A DNA stretch of 63,739 bases, counting the filler, from Hausera hauseri (taxonomy: Eukaryota): assembly GCA_046269625.1 (NCBI GenBank). It is 10 parts of 10 records of this genome, joined end to end, with 100 filler letters (N's around TTAATTAATTAA, not from the genome) between each part and the next. Parts side by side here need not be neighbours in the genome. Positions count along the whole stretch, not along the records: positions 1 to 11,523 come from JBJURY010094431.1; 9 more parts are not named here. One strand, 5' to 3'. Below the pieces are notes generated by a model that worked only from the letters and a program-made list of their open reading frames with translations, was not told where the DNA came from and ran no database searches. The number at the start of each line of letters is the position of its first letter. Position 1 is the first letter of the stretch. Shown here in pieces: positions 1 to 35,098 of this stretch. A program made the position numbers and the translations under genes.

Positions 1-985
1 GTCTATAACTTTTCTCATCCCCATTCGAATGCCTTTCGTCTACAATCTTACATTGTTCCCTATTCGATTCCAAACGACCAATACATATGATTCCCTTCTT
101 AACCACGAAATCAAGTTCCCACGTGATCATACAAAACCCATCAATCACTAACATAAGCATGCACGTACACATACGCCCCTTGCAACCTCTGTTGACACCC
201 ATTAAACGAGACAAAAGGAAGTAAGAAAAATAATTATAATAATCAATACCTTCAACTTTACATAACTTCTCTCGTTCGTTCCGACAACCACCGACAACGT
301 ACAGATCATCATGTGTCATTGCAGAAATTCCACTGAATAGAAAATTTTCCATCGAGGATGACAAAAACCATCGGTAATTCCATAACGAACATCTCAATAC
401 GATTAAATTCAGTGAAATACTTTCATTGAGTCTACCAAAAAGGCGATAGAAGTACCTCTGTCATTTAAAGTAAGAATTTGCGTGCCCATCACACATCTTG
501 GTCAAACAGGTAACCAGGTGATTCAATTTTCCTTTTAGTTTTAGTCCTCGTTCTAGCAATATTGTCGATAGGTTTCGTCTACGTTTTCTATAATGTAAGT
601 ATCGTCCTTCAGTCAACATACTCAAGTTTTTAAGATGTGCGGTTTCAATGTTATAAATCATGGGTATACCAACAGATTTCAACGTTACGTCATTATGTTT
701 GTTATCACTTATCAATTCTTCAACGATTGTCATAAAGATATTTGTATTATTAGCATAGGAGAAATATATTACAATAACTTTGCCAGTTGAATGAGATAAT
801 TTCCAATTTGACCATTTTTCAAACATTAGACTTGATATTTTCATTGTCATCACGAGAAATTTAGTTCCAAATTGATTCACAATCATTTTCCATAAACCTT
901 CAACATTTCTTTCATTTTTGGCACTGTGTCTGTAGATTCTGATTTCAGATAACCATTGATAGCTTTCCTCTGACTTATTTATCAT
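1..985 (-). pseudogene. LTR-encoded ORF, 3' copy (at least 328 codons, one internal TGA at 461-463), function unknown
   Basis: ORF 461..985 continues in the same frame after one TGA (QRYFYRLFG...LRCSLWNYRW...MLVIDG...) and stays open to position 1. That part aligns without gaps to ORF 7830..8306. Confidence 0.6.
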
Positions 986-1471
986 AATAGAAATTCTCTT
1001 AAAATTTTTAAATTTTCAAATTCCAAATTCTATAATTGTTGATCAATATACAATATTCTCTTTATTATTATTATCATCATTTATTCCTTCTTTCTATGCA
1101 TCTATTATAGACACACACGTATCTAATAACCCATATGTATTCCCCTCCATTATCTATATTCAAGGGCGTCCACAAGGGTTGCGTCACGATTACATAACAC
1201 ATATTTCAATTTCGCATTTCATATATATTTACATTTTTCAATCACACTCCCCTTTTTTCAACCTTACCACACACACAATTAACATTATAAACACAAATCT
1301 TATGTACAATATATGTATATAAGGTCAACATACCATACCTATTCACACACACCTATTTACAAATATATCTATTTAAACACGTTCATTTTTACACACTCTT
1401 TTCATTTATCCTGATCTTGATTTCTGATTGGATCGTTGCCGGATTTCCCAACTATGAATCGGGTCCCAACA
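1..1471 (-). repeat. 3' LTR of the BEL/Pao element (truncated at position 1)
   Basis: Begins TGTTGGGACCCGAT at 1471 on the minus strand, directly after a polypurine tract. Aligns by eye with ~7900-9258. Confidence 0.85.
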
Positions 1472-1485
1472 TTTCCACCCTCCTT
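1472..1485 (-). promoter_or_regulatory. Polypurine tract
   Basis: AAGGAGGGTGGAAA immediately 5' of the TG that starts the 3' LTR. Confidence 0.85.
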
Positions 1486-1499
1486 GGGGCAATCCGGCT

Positions 1500-2760
1500 C
1501 ATATATTTGTCTTCCACAATATCGATCGAATCCAACTGATTTTCTATTTTACACAGCTTGTGCACTGGGCTTTTATACATTTCCACGTTCAGTCTTAGCT
1601 CTACATCTCTTATAACGTTGTCTGTCCCTGGAAAAACCCTCGTTATTTCTGCGACCGGTCAGTGATTTAACTTTTCATTCTTCTTTAATAGCCACACTTT
1701 GTCTCCGATTTTCAATTCTATTTTTTCTTCTTTTATTCTATCACAAATTCGCCATTCAGATAGGAGTTCACTTCTCCAGCGATCCAAATATTCGTTGAGT
1801 AATTATTATATATATCTCCACTTATCTGCCAAGCTGCTCCTTCTCGTTCCGTTTATCTCCAAGGATGTTTTACCGTTGTGTCCAGCTATTATAAAATGGT
1901 TTGGAGTCAGAACGACATCGTTCTTACTGCCATCAACGACTCTAATTAGTGGCCGGCTATTCATTATTCCCTCGATCTCAATTAGTAATGTTTCCAGCTC
2001 TTCGTCTGTCAGGGTGGTTTCCGGAAGTAATTTGTTCAGCGCGTTTTTTACTGATTTGATTATTACTTCATAGACTTTCCCGAAATGAGGGGTACAGGAG
2101 GGTTGAATATCCACCTTATTTCAGTGTCCTTCAATTCTCTTTTAAGACTATATTTATCTATTTGAAATTTAGATATTTTTTGTTCGCTTCTATAAATGTT
2201 CCTCCGTTGTCGGAGACTATCAACGAAGATCTTTCCCTCCGACTTATAAAACGCTTGAGCACCTTTAGGAAAGAATTTGTGTCCAATCCTGTCAACAGTT
2301 CTACGTGCACCCCTCGACAGAGCAAACATGTAATTAGACATATGTACCTTTTTTCGTGTATCAAACCGCGTCTTTGTCGTGTTCTCACCGGTCCTGCAAA
2401 ATCAATTCCGACCTTGTCAAAGGCTTTAAGCGGTAGTTGTGTCCTAAACGCCGGTAATGGTGCCCTTTTGTCCGTATCCCCCTTGCATTTGACATTCTGC
2501 AAACCATACAGTAGTTCTGATACGCTTTGATTAGCTTCTTCATCCTGGGAAACCAATATCTACTACTTAACTCCGCAACTTGATAATTGACTCCCGCCGC
2601 GTGTCGCAGATTCAAATGTATGTCTTCAATAATCAATTTTGTTACGATGCTCTTCGGCGACAGTATTATTGGGTATTTTTGTTTCCAATTCAACCAAGAA
2701 GTAGTCATTCACCGGCTACCCGATCTCAATATGCCCTCGTCATCTAAAATGGGATTCATC
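1500..2760 (-). pseudogene. pol: BEL/Pao integrase (HHCC zinc domain, DDE core, C-terminal domain), frameshifted
   Basis: H...HAAGV...RYW...C..C, then GIDFAGP, RGVHVEL, KRFISRR, IVSDNG, IEGIMNSRPL, spread over ORFs 2385..2708, 2158..2556 and 1806..2114. Confidence 0.92.
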
Positions 2761-3099
2761 TTGGCGATAACACTTTTAGTACTAATTTCTCCATTAGATA
2801 ATAAACTTTTTATTTCCGCATGAAACTTTTTTCTTTGATCCTCCTTTATTATTTACAGTCTTGCTTTCTTTCTCAGATGTACTTCACTTAAGTTATTGGT
2901 TTTCTCTCTTAATGCAACTTCCCTTATTTTTTGTTTTACCACCTCCCAACGGGACTCTGCATCTTGTTCAATGTTAATCGTGCCATCCTAGCCCTGTTGC
3001 TCTCCCTTTGGTGTATCAGTTTCGAAAGTCATCAATGTGAACGCATCATTTCTCCTCTCCTCATCTTTCGGTTTCGTTAGTTCTCTGGGTTGAACCGGC

Positions 3100-3620
3100 C
3101 ATTGGTGTTCTGTCTTTCTTATAAATTCTGGACCGTTCCACCACTCTATTTTTTCTCGTAGCTCCTATATATCTAGTCCTCTAGAAAGATAGTCCGCTGG
3201 GTTGTGTTCCAATTTTACATATTTCCATTGATTACCGGTCGTTTCTTCTTGTATAAAACCCACTCTGTTAGCAACGAACGTTTTGTAATACTTACTGCAG
3301 CCTTTGATCCAAGACAGTATATTCATGCTATCTGTCCAGTACTGTACGTCTTCCTTCTCATTGCACAGGATCTTCCTCACCTTTCTCCCCAGCTTGACTC
3401 CTACACAGGCTGCCATCAATTCCAGTCTTGGTTTGGCGACACACTTTACTGGCGTTACCTTACCTTTCAAGCATATTATCGCTACTTTAATTTCTCCTTC
3501 CACTATCGATCTTAAATAAGCGACTGCCCCATAATCCTACCTTGAAGCGTAGCAAAAAATGTGTATCACAGTGCCGTCGCCTTCTTCAAAGTATAGATAT
3601 CTTGGTACCTTTATTGTACT
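3100..3620 (-). pseudogene. pol: BEL/Pao RNase H
   Basis: YGAVAYLR, PRLELMAA, WTDS, FVANRVGFIQ, WKYV...NPADYLSRG. Confidence 0.9.
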
Positions 3621-3979
3621 CAAACTATCCATGCCTTTTGCCCATTTCTTAATTTTCTTACTTCATGATCTCTTCATCCCAGTCCACACCCACCATCCAC
3701 AGTTGTTGCAATAACATTTTACCCAACAATGTGTAACAACTGAGGAAACCCAGTGGATCGAACACTTTTGCTAACGTGCTTAATAGTGTTCTCTTTGTTA
3801 CCTCCGTTTCTTGTTTATTACGGTCTTCAAAGTCGAATATATCGTCTTCAATTTTCTATTTCATCCCCAACGTCTTGGTAACAGTATCAGTTTTTTCCGA
3901 TATATTAAATCCTTTGCTCGACTCATAACAGGTACTATGTTCATTAACTCACCAGAATTTTATACCCACTTGTGTGGTT

Positions 3980-4996
3980 TCATTCCAGCTTTCTTCCACT
4001 TAGTTCACCGTATAACGAAACATCTTCTTTCTCTGTACTCACTGAATCGATACAGTCATCCATGTACGTAGAATACTCTATCGTCTCTACAGCTCTGGGA
4101 AATTGTTCTTTGAATTTTTCGGCGTTGTGCCTTGATACTAATTGTGCCAGAAAAGTAGAGGAGTTCAACCCAAATACCAGTCCATTGAACTCGTGTGTTT
4201 TGAGTTTCCCATCCTTATACCACAAAAACCTCAGATATTTGTTGTCCTCTGGTTTTATTTTGATCTGTAGGAACATTTCTTGTATATAACATACTACCAC
4301 CCGTGGTCTTTTTCTCATCCTTAATATGATATCCACAATATTCAACTGCAACTTCGGGCCGGGATCCAGGAAATCGTTCAGACACGTCCCTCGATATTTC
4401 GAAGCAGCATCGAAAACTATCCGACATTTCGTAGTGTCCCTTTTGACCTTCATTATGGGGAAGTGTGGTAACAACCAGGCCGTCTCTTGTCCTTTCTGTT
4501 CCTCTATTTCTCGAATATATCCTTCTTTAGTATGCGTTTCTATCACATTTTCATAAGCTGCCTTTGCCGTTTTATTTTTATCCAGCTTTTCCGTTAATGT
4601 TTTCAACCGTTTTTTTGCTATCCATTCATTATTTTCCAATTTTCGTTGTTTTCTTTCGTTCCACGGCAATGGCACACAGTATCTATTTTCCTCGTAAGTC
4701 GTTTCATCTAGTATACTCTTCACTGTTTTATCGTCTCGTTTGGACCTCTCAGGCTCATTCACATCCATATTAAATTCTATCTCCCATAATCTGTTCAAGT
4801 CGTTTTGAATTTTTTCTGTCCTAGTCCAAAAGGTCCTCACAAAATTACTATTTATCACTTTCCTTTCCTTTTTTACTTGTCCTACACAGGTCCAACCTAG
4901 CGGTGTTAATCGTGCCACCGGCGCTCTCCTTTTACCATATACCTCTTTGATCGACTTGTGCAATTCCATAAGATTAGTCCCGATGATTCCATCCAC
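3980..4996 (-). pseudogene. pol: BEL/Pao reverse transcriptase
   Basis: YCVPLPW, LPHFP, RIVFDAAS, LNDFLDPGP, EMFLQI, LRFLW, FGLNSS, YMDD. Confidence 0.95.
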
Positions 4997-5044
4997 TTCC
5001 GACCTAGGTGATTTTCTGGGAAACTTAAAATCCTTTAGGTGTGG

Positions 5045-5497
5045 TCATTTCTGTTTTTCTGTAAACCAATCTACTGCCCTCATTTGCCACTTTGTGTATC
5101 TCATAGCTAGCGCTTCGAATTTAACTTTCATTGACCGTTCCATATTTAATAACACCATATTTACCCTATCGATGGACATCTTAGTCTGCTTCCCTCTGAC
5201 AACTGTTATCGTCAACTTTTCCGTCTTCTTACCGACACCCAATTCCTCACATAGTCTTGAATCGACGAAGCTCTCGGTACTAGCATCGTCCAACAACATT
5301 ATTGCTCTTTTCATCCTATCCCCATTCTTCAACCGCACTTCTACCGTTTTTAGATCTATCCTCTCTTCCTGTTCGCTCGCTTCTGGAAGGCCTTGGGTCA
5401 CATAAGCTCTAACACCCTTTTGTTTATTTTGTACCTCCTTCCCTTCTTTTTCTTTCGACATCCTTGACGTAGATTCTTCTGTTGTTGCACCCACCAT
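5045..5497 (-). pseudogene. pol: BEL/Pao aspartic protease region
   Basis: AIMLLDDASTESFV active-site motif, followed downstream by the DGIIG flap motif. Confidence 0.8.
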
Positions 5498-5581
5498 TTT
5501 TTCACTTGAAATTTTAGTTTTTCGTTCTGATTTTTCCTTATTTTTGCCCTCCTTATCTGACTTCTTATTACCAGTTTTTTC

Positions 5582-5727
5582 ATGTATAAATTTACAATTA
5601 TTCCCATACTTACATTCCCCTTTTCATAATACCCACACAACCTCCTTTGATCGTCTGTACTAGGTAGGTGTGAATATTTACAATTCTCGCCGAATTTGCA
5701 TCGACCGTTCTTATCAAAACTCCAGCA
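5582..5727 (-). other. Tandem CCCH zinc fingers at the Gag C-terminus
   Basis: CWSFDKNGRCKFGENCKYSH is C-x8-C-x5-C-x3-H. Across a 1-nt frameshift near 5615, CGYYEKG(E)CKYGNNCKFIH is C-x7-C-x5-C-x3-H, and the shifted frame joins ORF 5045..5497. Confidence 0.88.
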
Positions 5728-5782
5728 TCTTTGTGACCGATCCTCACGTGGGATGTTAGAACGATTAGATTGCATCTCTTCT

Positions 5783-7234
5783 TTAATCTTTTAATCTTGC
5801 TTTAAACTTTGTGTTTTCATATTCTCGTGATCCTTTTGTAAAATACGTTCTTTTACTTTCTACCAATGAATATCGACCACCTTGACCTGTATTGAACGTC
5901 TCTATCCCTCTCACTCTCTCTATAGTATTACTTATGACTATCGCTTCCTTTTCGATCCAATTCTTCAGTTCCAGAACTGTCCTGTCTGACTTTTTATCTA
6001 TCACATGCCTTTCCCTAAGAAGTGCTATCGATTCTGCAAGCTTTTCCACGAGGCTCTGGTACAACAGACCCCCAGTAAGTTCTTTTGCTCTTCCTAGACT
6101 CCTCAATCTCACGATTATTCCTTCCAGTAACGCTACAAATTCGTCTAATCCTTTTATATCATCCTCCTCTACTGCCTGAAATCTTATTACCTCGGTCATG
6201 AACGCTGCATAGCAGCATTGTTCGCCCCCATAATAGGAATCCAATTTCGCCAGAGATGCCTTGTACCCCTATTTTGATAAATCGAAATTTTCGACTAGCC
6301 TTTTCGGCTCTTTATACAAGAATTGGTTCTGCTGTAGTCGTTTGTATATTTCCGACATTGTAGTTTTGTGGATACAAGTGTCAAAGGTCTTCTTCCATTT
6401 GTCGTACTCTGTAATGACCCCTCCAAATTTCGGTAACTCTAATTTTTGTAACTTCGGCAATATTGTTTTTTCTCTTTTTTCCTTTTCGGACTTCCCATTG
6501 ACTATCATCATCTTGTTTTCTCTCGAACGTCTCTCATAGATGACCGCGTTGATTTTTTTATTTTGATCACCTAACTATTCCATGTCATTCTCCAGTAGCA
6601 TAAGGTTCTCTTTCTTCCTCAATTTTCTTGCTGCAGTAGTTAATACACACAGCTCCCCTTGAAGATCGGTATAAGCTTTTTTATATTTCTGGTGATAGAC
6701 TTTGTATTCCTGATCATCCAAGTTTTCATTTATCAACTTTCTCCGAATCGTTGATAAATCATTGATGAATTTACGCCGTTCTGACAGCCTATCCTCCAAC
6801 TCTTCTGCAGTTAACTCACTTCCACCCTTTAGCCACAACTGTAAATGAATAGTCACATCCTTTTGAATATTGTATTCACTAAGTTTTCTACCGTCCTTTA
6901 GTTGTATCCCATTATATACCAACCGTTGTTGGTCTGTGGGGATTCCTTCTCTTTCCTCGATAACCGACTTCAATATTTCTACTTTATCCCACAATTTTAT
7001 AGCCGTTACAATTATTTTTCCTGAAATTGTTTCGAGAAAGACCGTCGAATCCGATCCTTTTGCTCTAACTGCTTCTTCTTGTGCCAAACTCCCGAAGCCG
7101 GGTTATTCTCTTTCTTTCATCCTAACTGACTCTCGCTTTAATTGTGACTTGTCCTCATCGGATTTACTATCATCAGTGAATTCCATTATCTTCCTTGGTT
7201 TTACACTACTAATTCGCGGTTTTTGTCCGGCCAT
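5783..7234 (-). pseudogene. gag: BEL/Pao Gag with N-terminal ubiquitin domain; interrupted by premature stops
   Basis: ATG at 7234 (MAGQKPR...) is in frame with 6575..7087 across a TAA at 7103-7105. The capsid-type region reads LPKLQKLELPKFGG...W...F...IH, then LDSYYGG...LVEKL. Confidence 0.85.
6821..7048 (-). other. Ubiquitin domain (76 aa, ends LKGG) inside Gag
   Basis: [11 protein letters not shown]...[43 protein letters not shown] aligns without gaps to ubiquitin ([43 protein letters not shown]). Confidence 0.95.
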
Positions 7235-7671
7235 TTTGACTTGATTCTTGGCAACATTGAACCTGGGATATCTTATGATTCCCCACAATTTGTTTAACAT
7301 TTTAAGACAGTTTGTTTCGAACAAAAACCTTTGTTTCCTTTTCCAGTCAGTCCACGATTTTATCCATTGTTGTCTATCCTCTCCCGCCTATAGGTATAGA
7401 CAGTAGGATTCTTTTCTTTTAAATTATTATCGTCCTCGGCGCAAGATTCCGTAACTCCCCATGTTAGCGTCACCTTTGTGAAATAGTCACGATGTTTCAT
7501 TATTTTCACTCCACCATATCTCCTCATCGTGCATATTTTACATAAAGTTCCCGCATTTATTTTAACATTCAAATGGAAGGAATAAGTTCCGGAAACAAGG
7601 AGACGGACATGGATGCTTCGAAAGACCAATGCTTCACGTGGCCTGCGCCCGTGAATCACGGTGCGGAGCAC

Positions 7672-7690
7672 AAACCACGCTCTGCTACCA
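7672..7690 (-). promoter_or_regulatory. Primer binding site, initiator tRNA-Met type
   Basis: TGGTAGCAGAGCGTGGTTT, complementary to an invertebrate-type tRNAi-Met 3' end (...AAACCACGCTCTGCTACCA), lying between the 5' LTR and gag. Confidence 0.8.
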
Positions 7691-7695
7691 ACAAA

Positions 7696-9258
7696 TGGAT
7701 ACATTAAATAGAAAATATACGTTATATTCCTTTGGATGTTATTTTTCCCTTCACCCAAATAATACACCTCATTCATAACATTACGACGTATAATTTTCTT
7801 TACAAGTTTCTCTCTGGGCCTATTTCTTTTCAAGCCTTTTTGTTTTCATACTGATTTACCTCGTCCATCACGCTTGATCGTCCAAAAAATGTACCCCCAA
7901 CAAACTTGTTCCTTACTCCACCCAACTTGACCTCCCCGTTTTCAAGATCCGTTCTTCCCTTTTTCAATTCCTCTAGTTCGTTCTGACTAATGCATATAAC
8001 TCCTCCTATAACCCCAGCATTCAACCTGAGCATGATCACAAAAACCCCATCAATCACTAACATAAACACACATACGCTCATACTTCGCTTGCAACCTCCG
8101 CCGACATCCCCGAGACAAGATAAAGAGAAACAATGAAAACGGTTATAATAAACAATACCTCTGAACTTGTACACCATCTCCAGTCCGTTCTGACGACTAC
8201 TAATATCACGTAAATAACTACATGTCACCACTGAGAGATCACAGAACAGATTCATTCCCAACGAGGTTCGCGAGTCCCACCGACAGGTCCATAATGAACG
8301 TCTCAAGGCGGTAGAGTAATTTTGAAAATCACATCGTAAATATTTATCTCCAGCATATACCTTCGAAAATCAACTTTTGTTGTGACGGTAGTTTCGAAGA
8401 ACATTGTTTGTCTATTTTTTGACGTAGGCTCAATTGCTTGGTCGACGCATTTAAATTCCAAAGGTAGATCATATCATTATGTTTGAGGTCAAATTCATCT
8501 TTTATTTTCATTAATTCAACGACAGGTTTATCAACATCATCTAATTTATCAACGTTTTCCAAATGATCCTCTGAATTAGAACAAAGAAATTCCCAAATTA
8601 ACACTTTCTTTGAATTCATAGTAAACACAATCATTACCAACTTTCGGAATTTGTTTTCTGTATGATTTTTCGTCAATTTCTTTATAGTTTCATTAGATTT
8701 CTATCCTTTGAAATGAGCTTTACAATTAAGGACAATTAACAACTCTCCACAAGATTGAATATTCTGATCTATCATCTATCTTTATGTATTCCAAATTAAC
8801 AATATTTCAAAATTTTAAAATTTAAATTTATTAATTCTTAATAATTTATCAATTTGCAATATATTCCCTTTGCAATATATATTTCTACCTTTGTACTTAT
8901 TCACTATAGGCACGTCATATATAACCGCCCACACAGATCCTCCTCCCTCCGCCTCTATGGGTGTCCACGGGGTTACGTCACAATTGCATAATTCACACGT
9001 GTTTACATTTTCTGATCAAACACACCTCTTTTCTCAACCGGACCTCATACACACACAATTTCAACACAATAAATATAAAATATTATGTACAATATATATA
9101 ATACCAGCATACCCGTTCCCATTCCTATACACACATACCTATGGACAGCTACATCTATTTACACACATTCATCTTTACACATACTCTTTCGTTTACCCTA
9201 ATGTTGATTTCTGATTGGATCGTTGCCGAATTTCCAAACTAACAATCGGGTCCCAGCA
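7696..9258 (-). repeat. 5' LTR of the BEL/Pao element (~1.6 kb; inner boundary uncertain, ~7696 or 7630)
   Basis: Begins TGCTGGGACCCGAT at 9258, is homologous to 1..1471, and ends near the PBS candidates. Confidence 0.75.
7830..8775 (-). pseudogene. LTR-encoded ORF, 5' copy (one in-frame stop and one frameshift), function unknown
   Basis: ATG at 8775 lies 483 nt from the LTR start (486 nt in the 3' copy) and is in frame with 8344..8676. A frameshift then leads into 7830..8306, which is homologous to the ORF in the other LTR. Confidence 0.55.
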
Positions 9259-9960
9259 GTTCTTTTCCATTCTAATTACAGCCGTTCGTGTCAAATGTCG
9301 TTAACAAGAAACAGACTCAATTAGATAAATTGCTAATTATTTTTTATCCATGCAGTTATACGAGATGCGTTGTGAAATTAGATTGTACAAAATGCCTTTT
9401 TCAAAACATTATTTTTTACTCCATTTAACACACTCATGAAATTTCGAAAATGTTTTTGTCTAGTTTGCATTTCAATGTTAAGAAAATCATAAAACGCAAT
9501 TTTTTAACAATCAATTAAAAGACACCTATATTTACAATTAAAATGTTCAATAAGGACCTCCATATGATGGGAAATTGACAATTCTTTTACAATCCCTCTT
9601 ATTATGTATTTATAACATTAATGACTTTGACAATAATTGAATACCTGTGACCTTACGATAACTTTAAAATTACCACGATGACTCATTAGAGGGGTCGATG
9701 AAGTTAGCAGTCTGTTTCGTAACAGTTACCCTACAATTGAAGGGTCAATGATATAGGTCTCTCGAGAAAGTTAGCACCAAGCACCCGCATCGAGCTGTAT
9801 TTCTATGAGTTTAGATTTATATCTCCAACAGTTATTGTGGTGTCAACCGTATGTTGCGGTCCCTTGGCCCATTTTAGTCGGGAACAGCCGAATGCGACAG
9901 TTTAGTCCCGACGGTGTAGCTAGCCGAAGGTCGGCTGTCCTCTCTTGGAGGATCTTGTCG

Positions 9961-10988
9961 ATGTTTACAAATTTATCAGTTTGGAATCGTCAGCATTTAA
10001 ATGAATATCTTTTGAAAGCAAATCAACTTTTGAGAAATTCAAATTTACAAATTTCACCGAAATGTGATGAATTTAAGCGTGCCGATTTTATATTCAAGCA
10101 GTCGGAAGTAGATAGTTTTTATTCTTTACCTGGAATTCCTCTCTCAGACGAAACTCCAATTATTAATGATGATGAAGTGATTAATTATGATATTGAGCAG
10201 ATTAATACGGATGTCATTAGTAAAATTGATTTCGCCGATATTTCTAAAAAGCTCGATGACTATAACCAATTATTCAAACTGTACAAGAAAGGAAAATTAA
10301 AGTCACTTGAAAGTAAATTACCGAGATCCAATTTAGCAAGATTGATAAAAGAAAAAGCTCGACAGTTAAAGCTTTTCTCAGCTCACCAAAGGCAGCCTAT
10401 GTATCGTGCGTCATCAGGGCGTATTGCATCTAGAACTTTAAGTGCTTTTAGTTATGAAACAAGGGAAACGGTGAGTAAACTTAGTCGAAAAGAAATGGAA
10501 ATTATCAAAGGCAATGAAACGATAATTGACGACGACAATCAGAAAATAAAAATCACAATAACCGATGGATATAAAAAGTCAGTCAGCTGTTTTTGGAATA
10601 TTCCATTCCGAGTGCAGTTACCACTAAAGATTCGAACAAGTTGCCATATTTTCAGAGAGAACTTTTGGTAAGTAATCCAAAAGGGAATAATAAAATCCAT
10701 ACTTTAAATGTAAACTTCCAAGCATTAGGAGCCGAATTTAAAACAGACGCAATGTTTAAGAAAGAACAGTTTGATGATATTCCATTTACATTTGCAACAA
10801 CTCCTGTTTCCGGTTTCGTTTCTCGTCAAAGATGTATTAGTGCAAATCAGAAATTGAAATTCTCCAGGCCGATTTCAACGATGTCAGTCGTTTCTAGTCA
10901 AAGATTAATTGCTCAGGAAACTGTGCATGATGATTTTGTAAACAAGAGTATAGATCGTTTTATGAGCTCAATTAGTGCACATGCTTAA
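9961..10988 (+). CDS. Unknown intronless protein (~340 aa) split by a probable frameshift near 10590
   Basis: Overlapping ORFs 9805..10671 and 10593..10988 with protein-like composition in AT-rich surroundings. No motif recognised. Confidence 0.4.
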
Positions 10989-13161: not shown

Positions 13162-14001
13162 TCGAATTCATTCAAATAACCCGTTATTTTCATGAGATAT
13201 CAATTATAATACGCCTGTATAAACAAAACTCCAAACTCACGACGACAAACAATGAAATAATTATATAATGATTAAATGTGTAACAATCAATTAATCACAC
13301 ACTACTACAATGTGACTAATTTCACACTCACCGTGTCCTGATGAGTAATTTAAATTATTTCAAATAGTTGGGTATTTCAGCATTGGACATTACTGTTGAT
13401 AAAAATCTAATATATCATATTGATGTCTTCTATTATCATACATTCTAATATAGCAGTTTATCATCGATTATAAATTTATAATGACTATTTTGAAATACTT
13501 AATTTATCATCAATAATTAACGTCAGTTTTCTACAACATTTACGTGGAATTTTACGAATAAAAACAATCCGTACATGATACAGTATTTTCAGATATTTGA
13601 GATGGCATAAACAGTAGCCACAGAACTGAACCAAATAAACATCAGTTGTGGACTATGGAATCGTTACAGACGACAGTCTGTATTCACGTACACACATTCA
13701 CACACTTTAGTTCCGATTGAAAATATCACGTGCAACAGAAATATTAAAACAAATCATGGAATTTATTTTGGAACGTCCGCAGCTTTTTACCATGATAGTG
13801 GATGGAAATGTAAAAATGCAATCCGTTGGGAGAATAATGCGACACTTATGCATCATCTCCACAAACATGCTTTTTCAATCTTTTAAGAAGTATGGGGCTT
13901 TGCCACTCGCTTCCCAATAAAACAATGGAGAAAAAACCGAAATCCGTTCAGAAATGGCTTTGAAAATTCTCACAAAAAAGCTAACAACTGAACTTATAAT
14001 A

Positions 14002-14589
14002 AAACGAATTTTTGTGTAAATATGGGGTTTTTACAATAATTAGCAAAGTATAATGTTGATTAATAATATGAAAATACTTTTTGCCGGGAAAACCAAAATA
14101 ACGCATTGTTTAAAGCTAATAAATTTTGACTACGCACATGACTGATCACAGACTATATTCGATGATATTTTTTATTTCGTCAGAACAAGAAGAAAATCGA
14201 ATATTAAAAGAATATTAACTCAAGAAGAATGAAAATGTAGTCCTAAACAGTGGGCGACATTTGAACAAGTGCCAAATGATGTTACACTTAAAGGATCCAA
14301 ATGTGTTATTTTAGCTTTCTTGGCAAAAAGTATTTTCATATTATTACTCATCATTATATTTTGCATGTCTCTCTGTTTATTTGTTATAAAAATGACCCAT
14401 ATTTACAGTAAAATCCCTCATTTATGGTACTTGTACAATATTTTTCACCTTCATTGAATTATAAAATTTAACAAATTCCACAAAAGAAATGTTCAACAAT
14501 TTTCGCATATTATTAATCATCATTATATTTTGTACGTCTCTCTGACTATTTGTTATAAAAATGACCCATATTTACAGTAAAATTCGTTT
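14002..14589. repeat. Three partial copies of the MITE-like family seen at 17122-17400
   Basis: Shared motif TTTGTTATAAAAA...TTTACAGTAAAAT at ~14300-14415 and ~14503-14589, and a reversed copy at ~14002-14115. Confidence 0.7.
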
Positions 14590-15689
14590 TCTTGTAAGAT
14601 ACTTAAAACATAGACGAAATTTGTGCAATATTGTGTAACATTGGACTCAACAAGGTGTAAATGACACAATTTTCAAACCAATCACGCTACCATTCATACC
14701 AAGAAAATCTCGATGTATGTGCTCTACGTAGAAAAAGTCTCATTTATCATCATTATCATTGCCAGAATCGGAATGATAGAAAACAACTGTTGCAACACAG
14801 TTAAGTAAGTTATTCGGCTTCCTTACATGAATTCAGAAAGATCAGCAGTAGACATGCCTGATAAATTAATGATTTACGATTTATTTATTTATTTGAATAA
14901 CCCGTCGAGTATGTGAACCGATTTCAAAACTCATCAACATTCAACTATGATGATTGCAAAGTTCATATTTCATATTCGAATAAAGACGGCTCACTTTACA
15001 TTTTCCGTAATCGGGGTTAAATTCATCATTTTTTTTCTGGCTTCTAAAACAGCAACTAGTGACGCCGCAGAGATTGCAAGATATGTGTACAAAATGCGAT
15101 GAATGATATTTGTCCATATAAGACTCCAATGTTCGGTAAACGATATTCGGTAGTTACTTAACATGATTGTGACTTTTTGTAACAAATACTTTCGACTGGC
15201 TACTCGGCGGTTTTCAACAAGCGAATCGGTTTTTTGTAACAATAATTTCTTAGATTAACGAAAATATTTGACAAAAATAAAGATATAGAAAGTGCGACAA
15301 AAGATTGAAAATTATAGGCTTCTGTTAATGACAGAGATTTTAGGGTAATTAACGGCTTTTTATGACAAATAGTCGAACGAGTACAACATACTATGCTGAT
15401 TGATAATTTGATAAAATAACACAATTGGAACTTTTAAATGTAACATAAATTTAGCACTTGTTCAACTTCCCCCAATGTGTATAAGGATTTTGAACTTGGA
15501 TAAAATTTTCTTCCATTTTATTCGATCCCGTGTTTTATATTCAATTTATAATATTTTCTCGATATTCTGGCTACTTGTATTGGTAGAAGAAGCAATTAAT
15601 CATTAAACCAATATATTTTAGTTTAGTAGAAGTTAAACAAAGCACAAAACCGAACAATACTGACAGACTATCTAAAATTAAACTACAGC

Positions 15690-15880
15690 CGATTCTGTGT
15701 ATGTCTACCTCTAAAACTTTTTGAACATCTTCAGATATTTTAAACTGCTCTGTTTATAAGATCATTTTCAACGATTTTCATTAAGGAATCTCAGACTTTA
15801 TCACTTAACTTCTGTGGTCTTCCTGATCGAGAATTATTTTCAATAGTTTAAGTCAAATTTAAATGTATGTAGACTTTCTT
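15690..15880 (-). mobile_element. Tc1-like transposase N-terminal remnant
   Basis: Minus-strand TIENNSRSGRPQKLSDK carries the GRP linker motif of Tc1 transposases, followed by stops. Confidence 0.45.
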
Positions 15881-16619
15881 GTATGACTGCAAAGCAAGAA
15901 ATCCACTTGAAAATAATCATAAAAATTAGTAACATATTTTATTTAAACAGATAAGATTTAAATTCGATTTAATTGATTATAATCAATGAAAATAATCAAT
16001 ATTAGATATTTCAAAGTATGAATCATACAGAAATATAAATTCTCTATAAATAGCGAACAGAGCAGTTAAAAATTAAAAATTAAAAAATAAATTTATGATA
16101 TAAAATTTTAAAATATGTAAATCAAGGTTGTAATTCAACGAGTCGGTGACGGAGTATTATCGACAACATACTGATCGTCAAAAAATTCAAGGAAACCTAA
16201 NNNNNNNNNNNNNNNNNNNNNNNNNNNNNNNNNNNNNNNNNNNNTTAATTAATTAANNNNNNNNNNNNNNNNNNNNNNNNNNNNNNNNNNNNNNNNNNNN
16301 ATGTGTTTAATTGCTTGTTAGGGTACTAATTACTGGAAATTATTTAATCGTTCATTCCCACCTAGACCAGACGTTATTCTTGACCACGGTCTTCTGAAAT
16401 GTCCAAGAATATCAAGCCTTTGTGAAATAATTACAGCAGCAAGTGAAAAAATTATTTCGAGATATATAACGTGTGATGATGTTCCCTTCTTCATAATACT
16501 AGTCGAACTAATTGCGAAGCATTTCCCAAATAGTCCCATAATTTTCAAAACCAGTATTACTTGTTGATCGTCGTGATGTAAGGGTCCATTACTGGACTGA
16601 TTCTCCTTCAAGTCAGACT

Positions 16620-17645
16620 TCGTGTCAGTCTGCATCTATCTAAACACACAATGCTATTTGCTTTATTTACCTGCCTTTCTTGAAGTACACGCATTATTTG
16701 TTTTAATTCTTGTTCCATTTTAATTCGTTCACGTTCTTTCATATCAATTCGTCGTATGACATCCTCTATTCTTGCTTCGGTTTTGGTCTAAAATTGAAAA
16801 TATGAAACAAAACCGGTTTTAAAGAAATCGCGAATAATCAGACTTGCTTCTTTTCAAAATCAAGTAATTTCTGATGGATCATTTTCATTTCTTCCTAAAA
16901 TTGAAATACTTATTTATCAACATTTGAATTGGAATTACTCGGGACTGTTGTAAATCTTCATTAATCCTCACTGATTTCCTTTGATTTTCATTACTTTCAC
17001 CACGTAGTTTCATTTCATTGACGTACTGTGTTTCCTACAAACATTGACAGGTGATGAATACATCCACACTCGAATTAAATAATAAGATACCTGGATTTTA
17101 TTTTTACTAACTTTGAATATTAAACGAATTTTACTGTAAATCGTGGTTTTTATAACAAATAGTCAGACAGACGTGTAAAATATAATGCTGATTTGAGAAA
17201 AGTAAAAAGTTCTAAATTCCTAAATGTACTGGGGGGAGGGTATTTGAATAAGTGCTAAATGCTGTTACAATTAAAGTCTCAAAATGCGTTATTTTGCGTT
17301 TCTCGGTAAAACTTTTTTTCACGTTATTAATCAGCATTATATTTCCCATGTCTCGCTGACAGTTTGTTATGAAAACTCAGGTTTACAGTAAAATTCGTTT
17401 CTTTGTGAGAAAAATGGAAATTTTTGTTGTTCTAAATAATTATTTTAAATAGGTTAGGTCATTGCACATTGACTTTTACAAAATACTTTTTAACAATGCC
17501 TTTCCATCCGATTAAAGAACTTGCTTTTATTATCGGCCAGGCGTTCGGAATTGTTTTCATTGGGGTAAGTTTTATTCGGTTTCGGATATGTAAAATTTGT
17601 CCAATGTGTTTCGTCCCATTCCGAAAATGAAATTTTCTTCATAAC
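16620..17645 (-). CDS. 3' exons of a spliced gene with a coiled-coil C-terminus (identity unknown)
   Basis: GT-AG introns of about 30-60 nt join ETQYVNEMKLRG...QQSR, EEMKMIHQKLLDFEKKQ and TKTEARIEDVIRRIDMKERERIKMEQELKQIMRVLQERQ in frame. The upstream extent is less certain. Confidence 0.6.
17122..17400. mobile_element. MITE-like element with ~70-bp imperfect terminal inverted repeats
   Basis: Left end AAACGAATTTTACTGTAAA...TATAATGCTGATT is the reverse complement of right end AATCAGCATTATA...TTTACAGTAAAATTCGTTT. Confidence 0.8.
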
Positions 17646-18999: not shown

Positions 19000-19797
19000 T
19001 CAACAGTCTAAGTTTACAATGTTCCTGATATCATTTTCTATTCGAAATGTCAAAGTCTGGTCTGCATCTGGTCTCTTTTTTGACGGTATTCGTTCAATTG
19101 GAATTAGGACTGGTTTTTGATACTTCATTAGGAGGATATATATTAATTTTCCACTTTTGTGATCATCCTTCAATTTTGATATGACCGATTTGTTTTTCAA
19201 TTGTACAGGTAGCTTGACGTTGAATTCTGCGCCTAATCTTATGGGTAATCGGTATAGCTTTTCATAATCATCGAAGAGGTAAAACATCTTTATATCACTT
19301 GAACGTTCAAATATAAAACCAATCACTTCGTTATTGTAGGTGTCCCATGATTGTAAACTGATTTTGGGTATAACTTGATCTATATAGAGAGGGGGTTCAA
19401 CGGAATCTATCACTACGGGAAAACTAAAGTTTCTCGTGTATATAAGTATTCCGTAAGGGAACGTGAATGTTTCAACCGTAGTCAATCCTTTTATAATCCT
19501 TTCGGTGAATTTTATAAAATCGGTTGTCTCTGTTTGAATTGCACAAGATACTTTTTGAATATCTTTATTATTCCAATCATGATTTGATGCATTTTCATCT
19601 TCTTCACTCGCAAGCTGATCTTCCATCTGTAAATTCTTATCTTCATCGGCAATGATATCTGAGATTTCTGATATAGAGGGAGTTTTCAATTCTTCCATTA
19701 TTTCATCTACAATAGCCTCTGTGTTCTGATTAGTTCCTCCGGTTGAATGATAGATCCATGCAAAATCCGACAGGTATTTTTCTCTATTGTAAAACAA
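19000..19797 (-). CDS. Unknown accessory ORF (265 aa), possibly a frameshifted continuation of 19707..20855
   Basis: Long open frame inside the element, with an acidic linker followed by a globular-looking region. Confidence 0.6.
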   Translation of the reverse strand: MFYNREKYLSDFAWIYHSTGGTNQNTEAIVDEIMEELKTPSISEISDIIADEDKNLQMEDQLASEEDENASNHDWNNKDIQKVSCAIQTETTDFIKFTERIIKGLTTVETFTFPYGILIYTRNFSFPVVIDSVEPPLYIDQVIPKISLQSWDTYNNEVIGFIFERSSDIKMFYLFDDYEKLYRLPIRLGAEFNVKLPVQLKNKSVISKLKDDHKSGKLIYILLMKYQKPVLIPIERIPSKKRPDADQTLTFRIENDIRNIVNLDC

Positions 19798-20855
19798 CTC
19801 CCCGGATCAACTACATTATTAAATGTTTCCTGCGGTGTCCATGATACCTGGAAAGGGTTTGTTACCAACTGAAAAACGTCCATAGTGAGTTTCAATTTGC
19901 CGTGGTCGTCTTGCGCATAACCTTGACCATTTTTAAATCCAGGTAATTTCAAAAGAGTACTGATATTTACTAACGTTAGTTGTTGGAACGTGCGTCCAGT
20001 AATTTCTTCGTGTTTCAGTAAGTCTACCACTCCAGCAAGATAATTGAAAGGAATATCGAAAACCTCTATCATCCTGTGGGTTTCTAATCCGATTACCACC
20101 GTTCCAAGCAACCAGTTAATCATTTCTTTTGTGACATCAAATATGTCTTGTATATGATAAGCGATATATTCTGGTAATATGCCATGCCGTATTGAGTTGA
20201 CGTTATGTAACTTCTTCCTGTTAGCTACAATTGCTTTGTATAATATAGCACCTCTTTTGTTGGCAATAATGACGTGAATGGGTAGAGGGCTATTATCTTG
20301 CATATAACCTGTGGATACAGTTAATATTCTGATGGTATTGCTCTGACAAGTATTTATAAAATTGACCTTGGTTTGTATTATTGTCTCCGGCGGGTTATGT
20401 GCTAAGACCATAGGTCTTGGCAAATACAAATGTTTTTCCGGCAGAAGACATTCGATTATCATAATTATTGGAAGGTACAATGGTCTGACTTGGATCAAAT
20501 CAATACTCATAGGGGTATTGATAAAATAAGTTTCTTCTTCGCAAATCGAGTTTGTGATTGCATCAGAATATCGACTTTCATTTCTTGTTTTTAAACAAAT
20601 CATTCCTCTGGCCACGTGTATTACTATCCCATCAATAGCATCTGTTTTAGCCATATATTGTTTTAATTCAAATTGCTGAGATTCATGAATTGTATATATA
20701 CCAAAATTCCTATTCATGGTTATTTCGTGCTTTAATTGGTTGGGGATACGAACCACATTTAAAGCTATGAAACACTCAGTTTTCACCATTTGTCTTCTGA
20801 TGTTGTTATAAAAGGTTTTTGACAAGGTTTTATTAAAACTACTTCTTGAAACCAT
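19707..20855 (-). CDS. Accessory ORF with a C-terminal REX4/ISG20-like (DEDDh fold) domain lacking catalytic acids
   Basis: HVIIANKRGAILYKAIV...HGI...FDVTKEMINWLLGTVVIGL...LTLVNIS..L follows the REX4 pattern VSIVN..G.VLYD..V...SGI...F..V..EV..LL.G.ILVGH. Domain at about 19863-20333. Confidence 0.6.
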   Translation of the reverse strand: MVSRSSFNKTLSKTFYNNIRRQMVKTECFIALNVVRIPNQLKHEITMNRNFGIYTIHESQQFELKQYMAKTDAIDGIVIHVARGMICLKTRNESRYSDAITNSICEEETYFINTPMSIDLIQVRPLYLPIIMIIECLLPEKHLYLPRPMVLAHNPPETIIQTKVNFINTCQSNTIRILTVSTGYMQDNSPLPIHVIIANKRGAILYKAIVANRKKLHNVNSIRHGILPEYIAYHIQDIFDVTKEMINWLLGTVVIGLETHRMIEVFDIPFNYLAGVVDLLKHEEITGRTFQQLTLVNISTLLKLPGFKNGQGYAQDDHGKLKLTMDVFQLVTNPFQVSWTPQETFNNVVDPGSCFTIEKNTCRILHGSIIQPEELIRTQRLL

Positions 20856-22173
20856 AATTCTGAACTAACGTTTGAAAATCTAATTGATCTGCGTGGTATT
20901 GAGGATGTAGTTTTGAATACAATAAGTTTGATTCTATTTGTGAATCGTTTCTCGTCATTTTTGGGTTTTGGCGTTTCATTTTGAATTTCTGTTGATTGAA
21001 TTGATAGAGGACTGAAAATAAATTAAATTCATTTAAATACTCACCTTTGTAGCTTTGTATACAACATACAACCAATGAGCATGTTAGAAGTTCAACTATT
21101 TGTGGGGACGCATGTAGTGTGTGCGATGATTGCTCGTGTAGATGACTAATTTGCAATCGCCATCTTGAAATTAGTGGGCAGTGACACGTGTTAGTGTCAG
21201 TATGACTGTGTCTGACTATTTTTGGAATAATTAAAGTGCCTATAGCCAACGTAAGCAACAAAGCTATACTTAATACAATGATTAACAAAGCACATATAGT
21301 AATACTTAGCTCAACATTATCAATTTTTGGTCTCATAGTCCGAGATTCGTTTCTACTATCTTTTTTATTATAACTAAATTTAACTACATTATTTATTTTC
21401 TGTAATGTTTTAACATAAATTTCTGAATAGTAGGTACAGTTCTTTACTACTACTAAATATTTAGTATCTGAGCTTAATCCTATGCAATAGGCATATTTTT
21501 GTTTTCTTTCAAAAATAATTCTCTGTTTATGGTGTTGGTTTATACAAGTTATACTAACCCATGCATTCCGAGTATTCGTTTGATGATTCCAAGCGAACTC
21601 TATTCTATCTTGTTTAGGATAAGTTAGTACAAACAAGTTATCCGTAATTTCTATGTCATTATACTTAGCCATCTTTTTATACTCCTTATAGGGTATGTTG
21701 CATATATTTTGTTCGGTCATGAAAGTAGTATCATACACAGAATCATTAATTTTAAATGGTATTAGACATTTAATGCTAGATTTAACTGTCAAATGTAAAT
21801 CCCATCTCTTTTCTTTATTGATCTTAAAAATTAGTGCTAGTAGGGAGAATGGTTGATTTATAACCAATAAAAGACAGGTTAAAATATTGTCTTTATATAG
21901 ATCCGCGAAAGCTAATTTGTCTTTATAAGAAATCACTATTTGTACTATGTTGCTAGTAGGTCTCTTTTTAAATCTTATACAACCTTTTTCAAAGTTTGGT
22001 CCTAACACTTGCATTTCTTTGTTAAATATCTCGTCACCAGATGTATGATTTTGATTCTGTTTTATTAGTTGCACCATTGATTCATAGGGGATGTTAAATT
22101 GACCATAACTCATATGAGTGCATGATAACCAAATAGTAAATACACAAATCATAGTTAGCAGATTGGTGGACAA
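20839..22173 (-). CDS. Type I membrane protein-like extension of Pol: hydrophobic signal-like segment, FN3-like domain, TM helix
   Basis: LLTMICVFTIWLSC, then IEFAW...IGLSSDTKYLVVV...YVKT (FN3 Trp and Tyr-corner pattern, ~21403-21642), then LSITICALLIIVLSIALLLTLAIGTLII (~21223-21309). Same frame as integrase. Confidence 0.7.
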   Translation of the reverse strand: MSTNLLTMICVFTIWLSCTHMSYGQFNIPYESMVQLIKQNQNHTSGDEIFNKEMQVLGPNFEKGCIRFKKRPTSNIVQIVISYKDKLAFADLYKDNILTCLLLVINQPFSLLALIFKINKEKRWDLHLTVKSSIKCLIPFKINDSVYDTTFMTEQNICNIPYKEYKKMAKYNDIEITDNLFVLTYPKQDRIEFAWNHQTNTRNAWVSITCINQHHKQRIIFERKQKYAYCIGLSSDTKYLVVVKNCTYYSEIYVKTLQKINNVVKFSYNKKDSRNESRTMRPKIDNVELSITICALLIIVLSIALLLTLAIGTLIIPKIVRHSHTDTNTCHCPLISRWRLQISHLHEQSSHTLHASPQIVELLTCSLVVCCIQSYKGEYLNEFNLFSVLYQFNQQKFKMKRQNPKMTRNDSQIESNLLYSKLHPQYHADQLDFQTLVQNYGFKK

Positions 22174-22284
22174 TAACTTTGGTGATGTAAACCCGAATTT
22201 TCCAGTATACGATTTTGGAGCCTTTGTTACATTTTATATGGAAACATTCTCTATTTTTCCAGGAGACTTTTCTATGAACAGGGT

Positions 22285-24075
22285 TTATGGTCTTACTTCC
22301 ACAACTTTGTATGGTCCTTTGCCAGTGCGGGTTAATTTTAATGATCTTCCTTTAGCTGTGAGTGGATAATGTATCACGACAAAATCTCCAATTTTATATG
22401 GATTTGACTGAGCCTTTTTATTATAGTACTTGGTGTAGGATTTTTTATAATTATCTCTAACCGCTCGCGCTTGTTCTCCATATTCACTTAACTGTTTTAG
22501 TAATAGTGTATAATTTTTTTCTTGCAGGTTACCCGTAAATGGCAGAACTGTTGGTAGCAGCTTGACATCCAGTAGCAACAACGGAAGTCTTCCAAACATT
22601 AATTCGTATGGTGTTTTATTTGTACTTCTCGTTGGTGTGGTATTCATAGCGAAAGCTACAGTTGGTAATTTATCTGGCCCATTTTTCTGATCTGCAGAGA
22701 CTTGTACGGATAAAATTCCTTGTACAGTTCTATTCGAACGTTCAACTTTACCATTACATTGTGGATGATAAGCTGTAGTTAAAACATGTCTAGTATGTAG
22801 CACCTTTGTGACTTCATTAAACAACTGACTTGTAAAATACGGGCTTTATCTGTTAATATTAATCTAGGTAATCCTAAAACGCATATTAATTTGTTGAACA
22901 ACTCCATGGCTATTGTTTCCGTAGTCATAGCTTTTAATGGGATTAATATAATGTAGCTTGTGTAATAGTCAATAAAACTCAATATATATTTGTAACCTGA
23001 TTCCGAGGTCGGATAAAATCCTGAAATATCCATTTCACATATTTCCATAGGTGCTTTTGGCTCTGGAAGTGTTCCAAGCAGTGGTCTTATACATCTTCCC
23101 CTATCCCTTCGGGTTGCGCAAATCTTACAAGATTTGACCCAATTGATTATGTCTTCTGTCTGATTTGGCCAAAATTATTTGAGTTTAATACGCTTTATGG
23201 TCTTGCCTAACGATGGGTGACCAGCTAGTTGAGAATCATGTTCTTGAAGTAAGACTGATTTTATCAAATAATTAGGTATTACAATTAAGGCTTTATCGTT
23301 GCATATGTATTTCAGTATATTTTTATCTATAATCAATTTGCTTTTGTGGTCTGTCAGCCATTCAGTTAAACGTTTATCAATATTAGGCATTTCTGACGTA
23401 CGTACGTACTGCTTCACTACATAAAGTAAAGGATCGTCATCTTGGACAGTTGCTAATTTGTTTGTATTTAGATTCGAGAATTCTGTCATCATCATAGTAA
23501 ATTCGTGTTCATCTATCTAAGTAAGTGCTGCAGAACTGATCTCAGGATATAGGGTTCGCGATATAGCATCTGCATCGCTGTGAAGCCTTCCTGGTACGTA
23601 TTTAAATTTCGGATTGTAGTTTAATAATTCTAATTTCCACCGTTGGATTCTATTATAAATACGCTTGTTTTTACAATCAAGTTTTTCTAATGCTTGGTGG
23701 TCTGTATAAACTATAACTGGGTAACCATATATATAAAATTCGTAATTTCTTAAGCCTTCTAGAATTGCTGACAGTTCCAATTCAGTAGCTGAATAATTTT
23801 TCTCTTCTTTAGTTAAGGCTCTTCCACCATATGCTACCACATTCAATTCTTTCATTAGGATATTGCTGCGCCAAAATATAGCTTAAACCATTTAAACTCG
23901 CATTCGTCTTTAAAATAAATGGTAATTCAAAATCTGGGTATTGTAGAATCGATGCGGAAACCATTTTCTTTTTCATGTCAAATGCGTTTTGGTGCTTTTC
24001 TTTCGAAATGTATTTCTTATCGTTTCGTAGTAATTCATATAATACACTATTTATTTGGGAGAAGTTTTGTATAAA
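22285..24075 (-). pseudogene. pol: Gypsy pol: RT connection, RNase H, integrase with GPY motif
   Basis: EKNYSATELE, VYTDHQAL, DADAISR, EHDSQLAGH...C..C, LILTD, TTAYHPQCNGKVERSN, TPYELMFGR, GKGPY. Confidence 0.95.
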
Positions 24076-33500: not shown

Positions 33501-35098
33501 TTGGACTCAACAATACCATCTTATAACATTTCCACAAAAGAAAGAGGAAACTCTCTAGATAATAGGAAAAGTAATAATGACGAAAGGAGTGTTTTACCCC
33601 GCCGCTCAGTAACTTTCAACGAACAAAGTAAATCAGCTTTTACGGGACTATTAATGGCCAAACCAATAATAGAACACCAACAAATCACATTCAAACCATC
33701 ATCCAACATGTCTATTTTAGAAAAACCCGTCATAACGAGAAACTATTTGAATCAAGCGGAACGAAAGGTACCAAATTTACAAAATAATACGCTTCCGTAT
33801 ATGTTATGGCCAGAAAGAAAGGAAATCAAAAATTTACTTTTACATCTGTAGCAGTATAAAAAATATCGTAGACGAGCAGGAACCAGAAAACAGTCAAATA
33901 AGAATGGCGTGCGTCGAAGGTGATCAGATAGTTAAGTTAGAAAATGTACATCTCGAAAAAAAAAATGTGCTGAAAGCCTCAGACAGCTACTCTGTGGAAA
34001 ACTTATTGTTGGAATTGAATCACCATGCTTGTTCAAGCAAATACAGCAAAAAGAAACAGATATCTTCGGTACGTTTAGTGTAGATCAGAATTATAATTTA
34101 CCAAATGATTATCGAGAAAGAGAAAATACATTACTCCAGCGATTAACTAATCTACGACAAGAATACAAAATTAAACTTAACCGTCAGGGACCCCAATATT
34201 ATATTTTTCCAAACAGACCATTGTATAAGGACGAGAGACATCCCCAACGAGAAATAACATGTAACACCATCATGATTCCGGAAGTAAAATAACAGCATCT
34301 GGACATAGATACAGTTCGAAATTGGGATAAGATATTTGCTAACAAGAAGTCTAACCAAATAGAGTTTGAAGATATTGCCAAACAAGGATTGATTTGTGTG
34401 GAAGGTGTCGATAAAGCTTACTTAAAGAATACCGATATCCAGATTAAAAAGAATGATTCACCATGTGAAATTAATACCAATAAAGGAGAAGCCTGACTAC
34501 AAGTCAGTAATAAAACAGTAATCATTTCCAAAGGGACTATGATACTTCCCAATTATTCATATGAAGAAGATTGTCAAATCCAACCACTACATAATTGCCC
34601 GTTATACTTAATTCAATTGCTTAAGGAAACACCCATATTATCTGTGGATGAACCTGTAACGCAGGATANNNNNNNNNNNNNNNNNNNNNNNNNNNNNNNN
34701 NNNNNNNNNNNNTTAATTAATTAANNNNNNNNNNNNNNNNNNNNNNNNNNNNNNNNNNNNNNNNNNNNTTGTCCATCTACAAACTGACCATTAAAGACAA
34801 CAATATCGTATAAACAACATGGCCCCAACTCCATGCTTATGTAATCCACAAAGGCAATGTATCGGGAAAGTTTCTTCACGACTGTCCCGTGCCTGAAACA
34901 CAGCGTGCCTCCATTTGGTCATCTGGTTGTTTCTATTATCAACAGCTGTACACTGACTATGATAATGGCGAAATGCGTGAGATATTCCTAGACCATAACA
35001 TCATTGTTGCCTAGGTACGAAAGCACAAAATGAAGACACACACAATTTTGATAACAAATCCATAATAGCTAGGTGAACACTAGTACGTTTTCTTAGCC

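Follow-up and report, generated by a model that had tools for sequence, protein, structure and literature searches.

A captured ubiquitin lies directly upstream of Gag, and in frame with it, in an LTR retrotransposon of BEL/Pao type from Hausera hauseri. The domain ends in an intact di-glycine and is probably a cut site at which host deubiquitinases free Gag from a long leader. The element was found in the window, the whole stretch of DNA that was analysed (63,739 nucleotides, ten joined parts of assembly GCA_046269625.1). The domain occurs throughout the family of this element, and seven other divergent Gags have ubiquitin or its tail in the corresponding position. The leader frame, which is more open than chance, can be followed from the domain back into the 5′ LTR.

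The Ubiquitin Domain and Its Element

The element lies on the minus strand and comprises the following features, from its upstream end:

7630..9258 (−), 5′ LTR of about 1.63 kb, TG at 9258 and CA at 7630 (repeat match, ends from the sequence)
8876..8923 (−), two TATA-like motifs, at 8923 and 8881, within the LTR and ahead of the leader ATG (a pattern match only, with a putative promoter role)
7049..8775 (−), leader frame of about 575 codons, from the LTR ATG at 8775 through the LTR end and the primer site to ubiquitin (break counts compared with shuffles)
7618..7628 (−), primer-binding-site-like motif, TGG one base past the CA of the LTR (sequence)
6821..7048 (−), ubiquitin-derived domain, 76 residues, unbroken (translation, Pfam, alignment; selection among copies)
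5786..6820 (−), Gag, a helical N-terminal region from Ser followed by the capsid core (DUF1759), with two in-frame stops (Pfam, translation)
5582..5733 (−), nucleocapsid position, occupied by a pair of CCCH zinc fingers (zf-CCCH in Pfam, E=8.8e-07 and 5.8e-05)
1452..5581 (−), pol, with protease, reverse transcriptase, RNase H (Peptidase_A17) and integrase and many breaks (Pfam RVT_1, Peptidase_A17, Integrase_H2C2; colinearity with P0155)
1..1471 (−), 3′ LTR after a purine tract, TG at 1471, running off the window (repeat match, sequence)

Read from 7048 to 6821 on the minus strand, the domain gives 76 residues with the C-terminus LWLKGG, followed by Ser; the plus-strand frame over the same interval is full of stops. 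It matches ubiquitin in Pfam (E=4e-19) and shares 38 of 74 residues with ubiquitin positions 3–76 without gaps (51%, counted by eye on the alignment). The preliminary description had reported just such a gap-free homologue, about half identical to ubiquitin, ending in LWLKGG and fused in frame to Gag, with Ile at the position of K48 and Lys at that of K63, and the window copy reads so throughout. The 76-residue β-grasp ending in GG is shared with host ubiquitin, but the near-invariant sequence, the full set of seven lysines and the Leu8-Ile44-Val70 patch are not: Lys 6, 29, 33 and 48 are missing, and the patch consists of Ile, Val and Gln. Since there is no Met at position 1, reading must begin upstream. 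One frame joins the domain to the capsid region of Gag (DUF1759, E=1.7e-12, read through with X). Three stops escaped the preliminary description, namely that at 7105-7103 before ubiquitin and those at 6577 and 6271 in Gag.

The element is of BEL/Pao type, an assignment that rests on its domains and their order, the tree built here being one of the Gag core of unnamed relatives. Pao-type Gag (DUF1759) and Peptidase_A17 are both present, and gag, protease, RT, RNase H and integrase follow one another in the expected order, colinear with the 1706-aa BEL/Pao polyprotein P0155. No env was found among the Pfam domains of the element. A helical bundle is predicted for the N-terminal region of Gag in the relative P0003. 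The CCCH pair, also visible in P0004, takes the place of the usual Pao Cys/His knuckles, which P0010 of the same clade retains.

The element has direct repeats that open with TG, as well as a primer-site-like motif and a purine tract. The two LTRs are 68% alike, the 3′ LTR being incomplete in the window: the 5′ LTR resembles 1475-963 and 397-76 at 68–69%, and the middles of the two do not align. The 5′ LTR most likely ends at the CA at 7630, because the primer-site-like motif comes next; this motif appears similar to the tRNA-Tyr-type primer site of BEL/Pao elements. Although the LTRs are only 68% alike, few private sites set the internal part apart from family copies, and contigs joining both LTR versions occur in run X1. 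Recombination between subfamilies is suggested as the source of the unlike LTRs, and the element is possibly recombinant. With 25 breaks, 20 in gag-pol and five in the leader, the copy in the window is dead.

A Clade of Gags with a Ubiquitin Tail

With 60% identity along 342 residues, P0003 is the nearest Gag relative, and the match begins at the LKGG|S junction. In a HMMER search with P0003, of which the best 150 of 1891 matches were examined, six further Gags have ubiquitin, or its tail, in the corresponding position (P0007, P0022, P0008, P0010, P0021 and P0004, the last beginning just ahead of its LKGG); the relatives are single-contig gene calls whose starts are unreliable. In all eight Gags, the window copy and P0003 included, an L-x-G-G motif stands 117–129 residues before the capsid core, and identity among the six whose Gags were compared is 21–61%. 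Outside the clade, 64 Gags extend far enough to hold the motif at that place, and none of them has it. The eight fall within one 12-row clade, which is recovered with a support of 0.999 by FastTree (151 rows) and with an SH-aLRT of 96 by IQ-TREE (50 of the 151 rows). The remaining four rows of the clade have no N-terminus. P0020 has a short N-terminus unlike the others, and its lineage may have lost the domain.

Within this clade, L73, G75 and G76 are retained in all eight Gags whose N-terminus reaches that far. The preliminary description would have been undermined by a GG that varied among intact family members, and this objection falls away. The residue after GG is Ser in six, Gly in one and Met in one, never Pro, so that each of the eight has the layout of a processing signal, with ubiquitin directly before Gag, GG intact and no Pro next. 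The rest of the domain is much less constrained: Lys48 is found in three of five clade domains, Lys63 in three of seven, Arg42 in four of five and Lys27 in all five, and position 44 reads V/I/L/L/V, the Ile44/Leu8/Val70 patch varying with it.

Divergence of the domain is decoupled from that of Gag, to judge from two pairwise comparisons. The window copy and P0003 are 61% identical in Gag and 27% in the ubiquitin domain, whereas P0007 and P0022 share 67% in ubiquitin and 29% in Gag. P0007 itself is about 80% identical to ubiquitin (counted on alignments). Fast drift or re-capture may each explain this pattern.

P0003 represents the far end of the series. Its segment was not detected as ubiquitin by BLASTP or Pfam, nor by a small unbiased profile, against which 821 of about 1900 shuffles scored as high. 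Its matches in Atlas all lie below 0.9 and serve as a lead only, and a model built from the single sequence has low confidence, though it starts strand-strand-helix. The segment aligns nearly gap-free to ubiquitin, with 15 of 16 core positions hydrophobic. When seeded with ubiquitin rows, it is predicted as a β-grasp (pLDDT 69–80; TM 0.73–0.80 to ubiquitin, NEDD8 and ISG15) whose flexible, low-confidence tail precedes the first Gag helix. P0003 thus models as retaining only the fold and the tail of ubiquitin, and both arginines of that tail are missing.

P0004 shows a further peculiarity. Its residues ~700–1016, after the protease, form a long coiled-coil-like run unlike pol, perhaps a fusion with host sequence.

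Conservation Among Family Copies

In run X1, 2285 contigs match the element at an identity of at least 80%, and 103 match the 371-nt stretch around ubiquitin, several of them running across the ubiquitin–Gag junction. All of these copies come from a single run, possibly the source sample, and are related to each other. The domain is therefore no peculiarity of the window copy, as it would have been had it landed there by chance.

Variants were examined in the 40 best supported of 143 rows, 29 of which fall inside ubiquitin. Among these 29, 18 are synonymous, against the 27.6% expected from the observed mutation spectrum (p ~1e-4, a guide only, since the copies are related). In the same 40 rows, each of codons 73, 74, 75, 76 and 77 has a synonymous variant and none a non-synonymous one. 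Trp72 is private to the window copy, all 17 contigs that cover the site differing from it, and position 48 is polymorphic. The variant spectrum indicates that protein-level selection acts on the domain across copies and that it covers the whole 76-residue fold, not the tail alone.

A Long Leader that Probably Starts in the LTR

The preliminary description had placed the start of the frame about 60 codons upstream of ubiquitin. An ATG does stand 62 codons upstream, at 7234, but the stop at 7105-7103 intervenes, and this start is probably wrong. Most likely, judging from the openness of the frame, reading starts at an LTR ATG about 575 codons upstream. The start of this leader was picked after inspection, and its continuity is read across five breaks: a stop at ~8703, frame changes at 8370, 7847 and 7389, and the stop at 7105.

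Several counts describe the leader as a decayed reading frame. The fewest breaks with which its 1727 nt can be read number five, compared with 20.6 in shuffles (minimum 13); none of 300 shuffles is as low. Taken separately, the stretch within the LTR and that between primer site and ubiquitin both exceed every one of the 300 shuffles in openness, while no such excess is seen in two flanks or in the LTR sequence that precedes the leader ATG. Among 75 other stretches of equal length, 24 have at most five breaks, and these overlie long-ORF regions of other elements. The open frames of the leader tile end to end with overlaps of 15–27 nt. Leader and gag-pol have decayed at similar rates, with 2.9 and 3.7 breaks per kb, respectively.

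In the 3′ LTR, the corresponding frame runs from an ATG at 985 as far as the window reaches, and its 328 codons contain a single stop (one break in 985 nt vs. 12.9 in shuffles). The 92 codons common to both LTRs contain no in-frame stop, compared with six to seven stops in each other frame. Over the same codons, 53 changes are non-synonymous and 10 synonymous, and mismatches are spread over the codon positions as 42/37/33. On these counts, the leader frame is kept open while its residues drift freely. No copy was found in which LTR, leader and ubiquitin form one unbroken frame. The TATA-like match is absent from the matching part of the 3′ LTR.

Upstream leaders are also present in the relatives P0003, P0007 and P0022, and that of P0022 contains an HSP90 fragment (E=1.1e-11). 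The leader pieces of the window match nothing in Pfam, nothing among PDB sequences (two pieces) and nothing in Atlas (one piece). They match none of the relatives' leaders either, and no host cargo can be named in the window copy. A segment at 8391-8356 that looked ubiquitin-like by eye was dropped (E=4.7).

How the Domain May Be Used

The transcription start, the translation through the primer site, the cleavage and the benefit that we infer would connect as follows. RNA would begin in the LTR, and ribosomes would start at the first LTR ATG and read on for about 575 codons, through the remainder of the LTR and the primer site, before they enter ubiquitin and then Gag. After Gly76, the product would be cut by a host deubiquitinase. 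Gag and Gag-Pol would thereby be set free and begin, as normal proteins do, with a small residue (Ser, Gly or Met), and the leader–ubiquitin piece would be discarded. The element would gain an LTR that can grow and absorb foreign sequence without altering the N-terminus of Gag. Proteins ordinarily start with residues such as Ser, Gly and Met, which can be N-terminally acetylated (PMC11441550).

Taken together, the drifting leader, the conserved fold with its invariant GG and the small first Gag residue other than Pro make a host-deubiquitinase cut site the likely role of the domain, and a start about 575 codons upstream in the LTR would supply the reason for having one. Of the three roles offered in the preliminary description, a deubiquitinase cut that fixes the Gag N-terminus is favoured by comparison among relatives; support for the budding aid and the decoy modifier is weak, since both depend on surfaces and lysines that vary. 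Conjugation or binding does not appear to be what is kept, since Lys48, Lys63 and position 44 vary while GG is invariant. Recognition by host enzymes is an assumption, given that the window domain is half identical to ubiquitin and the P0003 tail is without both arginines.

It is unlikely that the domain instead stays on Gag, where it would recruit ubiquitin-binding machinery (ESCRT budding, trafficking, proteasome shuttling) or aid folding. Selection on the whole 76-residue fold rather than the tail alone speaks for this alternative, a diverged domain could escape cleavage, and ubiquitin fused to retroviral Gag restores release (PMC3751857); the fusions described there, however, are C-terminal. 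A retained domain would not need an invariant GG, yet GG is its best-kept part. The Ile44/Leu8/Val70 patch varies, the element has no detected env, and an uncut Gag would bear some 575 residues of drifting leader.

Cleavage might also serve the released leader–ubiquitin, which would be conjugated to host proteins or block ubiquitin enzymes as a decoy or counter-defence. Such a role can coexist with the cut, which would expose the C-terminal GG, but as the main purpose it seems improbable. The retention of Arg42 in four of five domains and of Lys27 in all five speaks in its favour, as does the absence of Lys48 from the window copy and P0010, which a chain terminator would need. Against it, position 48 is polymorphic among copies and is Lys in three relatives, and leader residues drift like neutral sequence. 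Activating enzymes read basic tail residues of ubiquitin, and P0003 is without them.

A nearer start has also to be weighed. Two in-frame ATGs stand 84 (7300) and 62 (7234) codons upstream of ubiquitin, and P0007 has Met at ubiquitin position 1. Gag could accordingly be read from one of these ATGs or from a spliced message, with the upstream frames as unrelated remnants and ubiquitin as a short tag tuning the amount or stability of Gag. This is very improbable, as both leader stretches are more open than all 300 shuffles, the frames tile with overlaps of 15–27 nt, and both LTRs keep the same frame open. Finally, a processed ubiquitin pseudogene that landed in one copy by chance, which the heavy decay of the copy and the stop upstream of the domain might suggest, is refuted by the many copies, the selection and the same placement in seven other divergent Gags, and its probability is negligible.

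The cut-site reading can be extended to the clade, tentatively, as a real possibility. The clade may have moved its start into the LTR and thereby acquired a translated cargo bay, while the body of ubiquitin drifts or is re-captured and GG stays; the cargo–ubiquitin could even become attached to host proteins. Cargo, including scraps of host genes, would be tolerated as long as the frame stays open, because the captured ubiquitin lets host enzymes free Gag.

Comparison with Known Systems

The closest parallel is offered by cytopathogenic pestiviruses (BVDV Osloss, CP1, CP Rit), which carry captured host ubiquitin in their polyprotein (PMC8310069, PMC13517609). The capture sometimes stands behind a host scrap (S27a), and host hydrolases cut it so that a defined downstream N-terminus results; with a host scrap and a shortened ubiquitin, this is the true N-terminus of NS3 (PMC8310069). 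Further pestivirus captures of ubiquitin or ubiquitin-like sequences are described in PMC13517609. These captures are recent and near-exact, occur in single RNA-virus strains and precede NS3, as far as these two sources describe them. In contrast, the domain of the element is old and diverged (~20–80% identity), fixed in a retrotransposon clade, and stands before a capsid protein and after an LTR leader. By analogy, the element likely works like the pestivirus ubiquitin signal without being a member of that group.

The ubiquitin reference technique, as described in PMC3692480, uses the same order of upstream polypeptide, ubiquitin and downstream polypeptide. Ubiquitin so placed is cut co-translationally after Gly76 unless Pro follows, albeit in constructs designed in the laboratory, whose ubiquitin is intact. 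In the natural host fusions with ribosomal proteins, ubiquitin comes first and no leader precedes it.

With the BEL/Pao elements (Belpaoviridae) surveyed in PMC3118150, the element has in common its LTRs, a DUF1759-type Gag, the PR-RT-RH-IN order and Peptidase_A17. Its LTR of ~1.6 kb exceeds the 0.2–1.2 kb given in that survey. Unlike the usual BEL/Pao element, it has CCCH fingers where P0010 has Cys/His knuckles, and its coding appears to start in the LTR. A ubiquitin/SUMO-like domain is likewise found in the LTR-element polyprotein of the giant gypsy elements Burro/GYPSM1 of planarians (PMC6431247). There, the domain (Ubi2/SUMO-like) is internal and downstream of Gag, and the portion of PMC6431247 considered here describes no GG cut site; the window element, by contrast, has Pao-type domains, and its ubiquitin is upstream of Gag.

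No earlier description of a ubiquitin–Gag layout was found in the literature, the scope being titles and the beginnings of abstracts, with Repbase and subscription journals outside it. The word "ubiquitin" is absent from the main texts of PMC3118150 (the BEL/Pao survey) and PMC6338049, as far as these were available, and their supplements could differ. Word-based protein searches gave one match of 6682 candidates and none of 7978 longer ones, and a search with the eight-row alignment matched only a query member among 7992, all of which are weak negatives. No related locus was found in the viral or metagenome contigs searched.

Other Features of the Window

Other retroelements are present. At 32083-45285 (+), a gypsy-type gag is followed by a mononegavirus-like fusion glycoprotein (40284-40727, E=2e-15), RT, RNase H and integrase; env stands before pol as in planarian Burro, but the pieces lie apart, across assembly gaps at 34.7 and 39.0 kb. 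Another gypsy-type RT with RNase H lies at 47488-49485 (+). At 19000-23174 (−), an integrase is followed by ~3.8 kb of long open frames without a Pfam match, which could possibly be an env or accessory gene of another retroelement. Beside the 5′ LTR, a 298-codon open frame at 9775-10671 (+) also has no Pfam match.

Frames with Ig and TSP1 domains at 51881-52873, 60559-60939 (+) and 62559-63050 (−) are probably host exons and indicate that the host is an animal, and a mariner-type transposase piece was listed with them. There are also an imperfect 216-nt palindrome (36734-36949), a pair of 128-nt inverted repeats (55236-56567) and, at 13993-17410, clustered short dispersed repeats of either orientation, MITE-like. 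A "repeat family" called by the repeat finder at 11524-59751 consists of the nine assembly gaps, each of 44 N, 12 bases and 44 N.

Conclusions and Outlook

In LTR retrotransposons, Gag is thought to start past the primer site, and polyprotein processing to be the task of the element's own protease. If the proposed reading is true, the ubiquitin–Gag clade would follow a different expression strategy, in which translation starts in the LTR and host deubiquitinases fix the N-terminus of Gag. It would provide a heritable counterpart to the short-lived ubiquitin captures of pestiviruses, and host sequence could be captured by its LTRs and translated without costing the element anything. The natural series of ubiquitin variants in these Gags, spanning ~20–80% identity, may then help to answer how far the domain can drift and still be cut.
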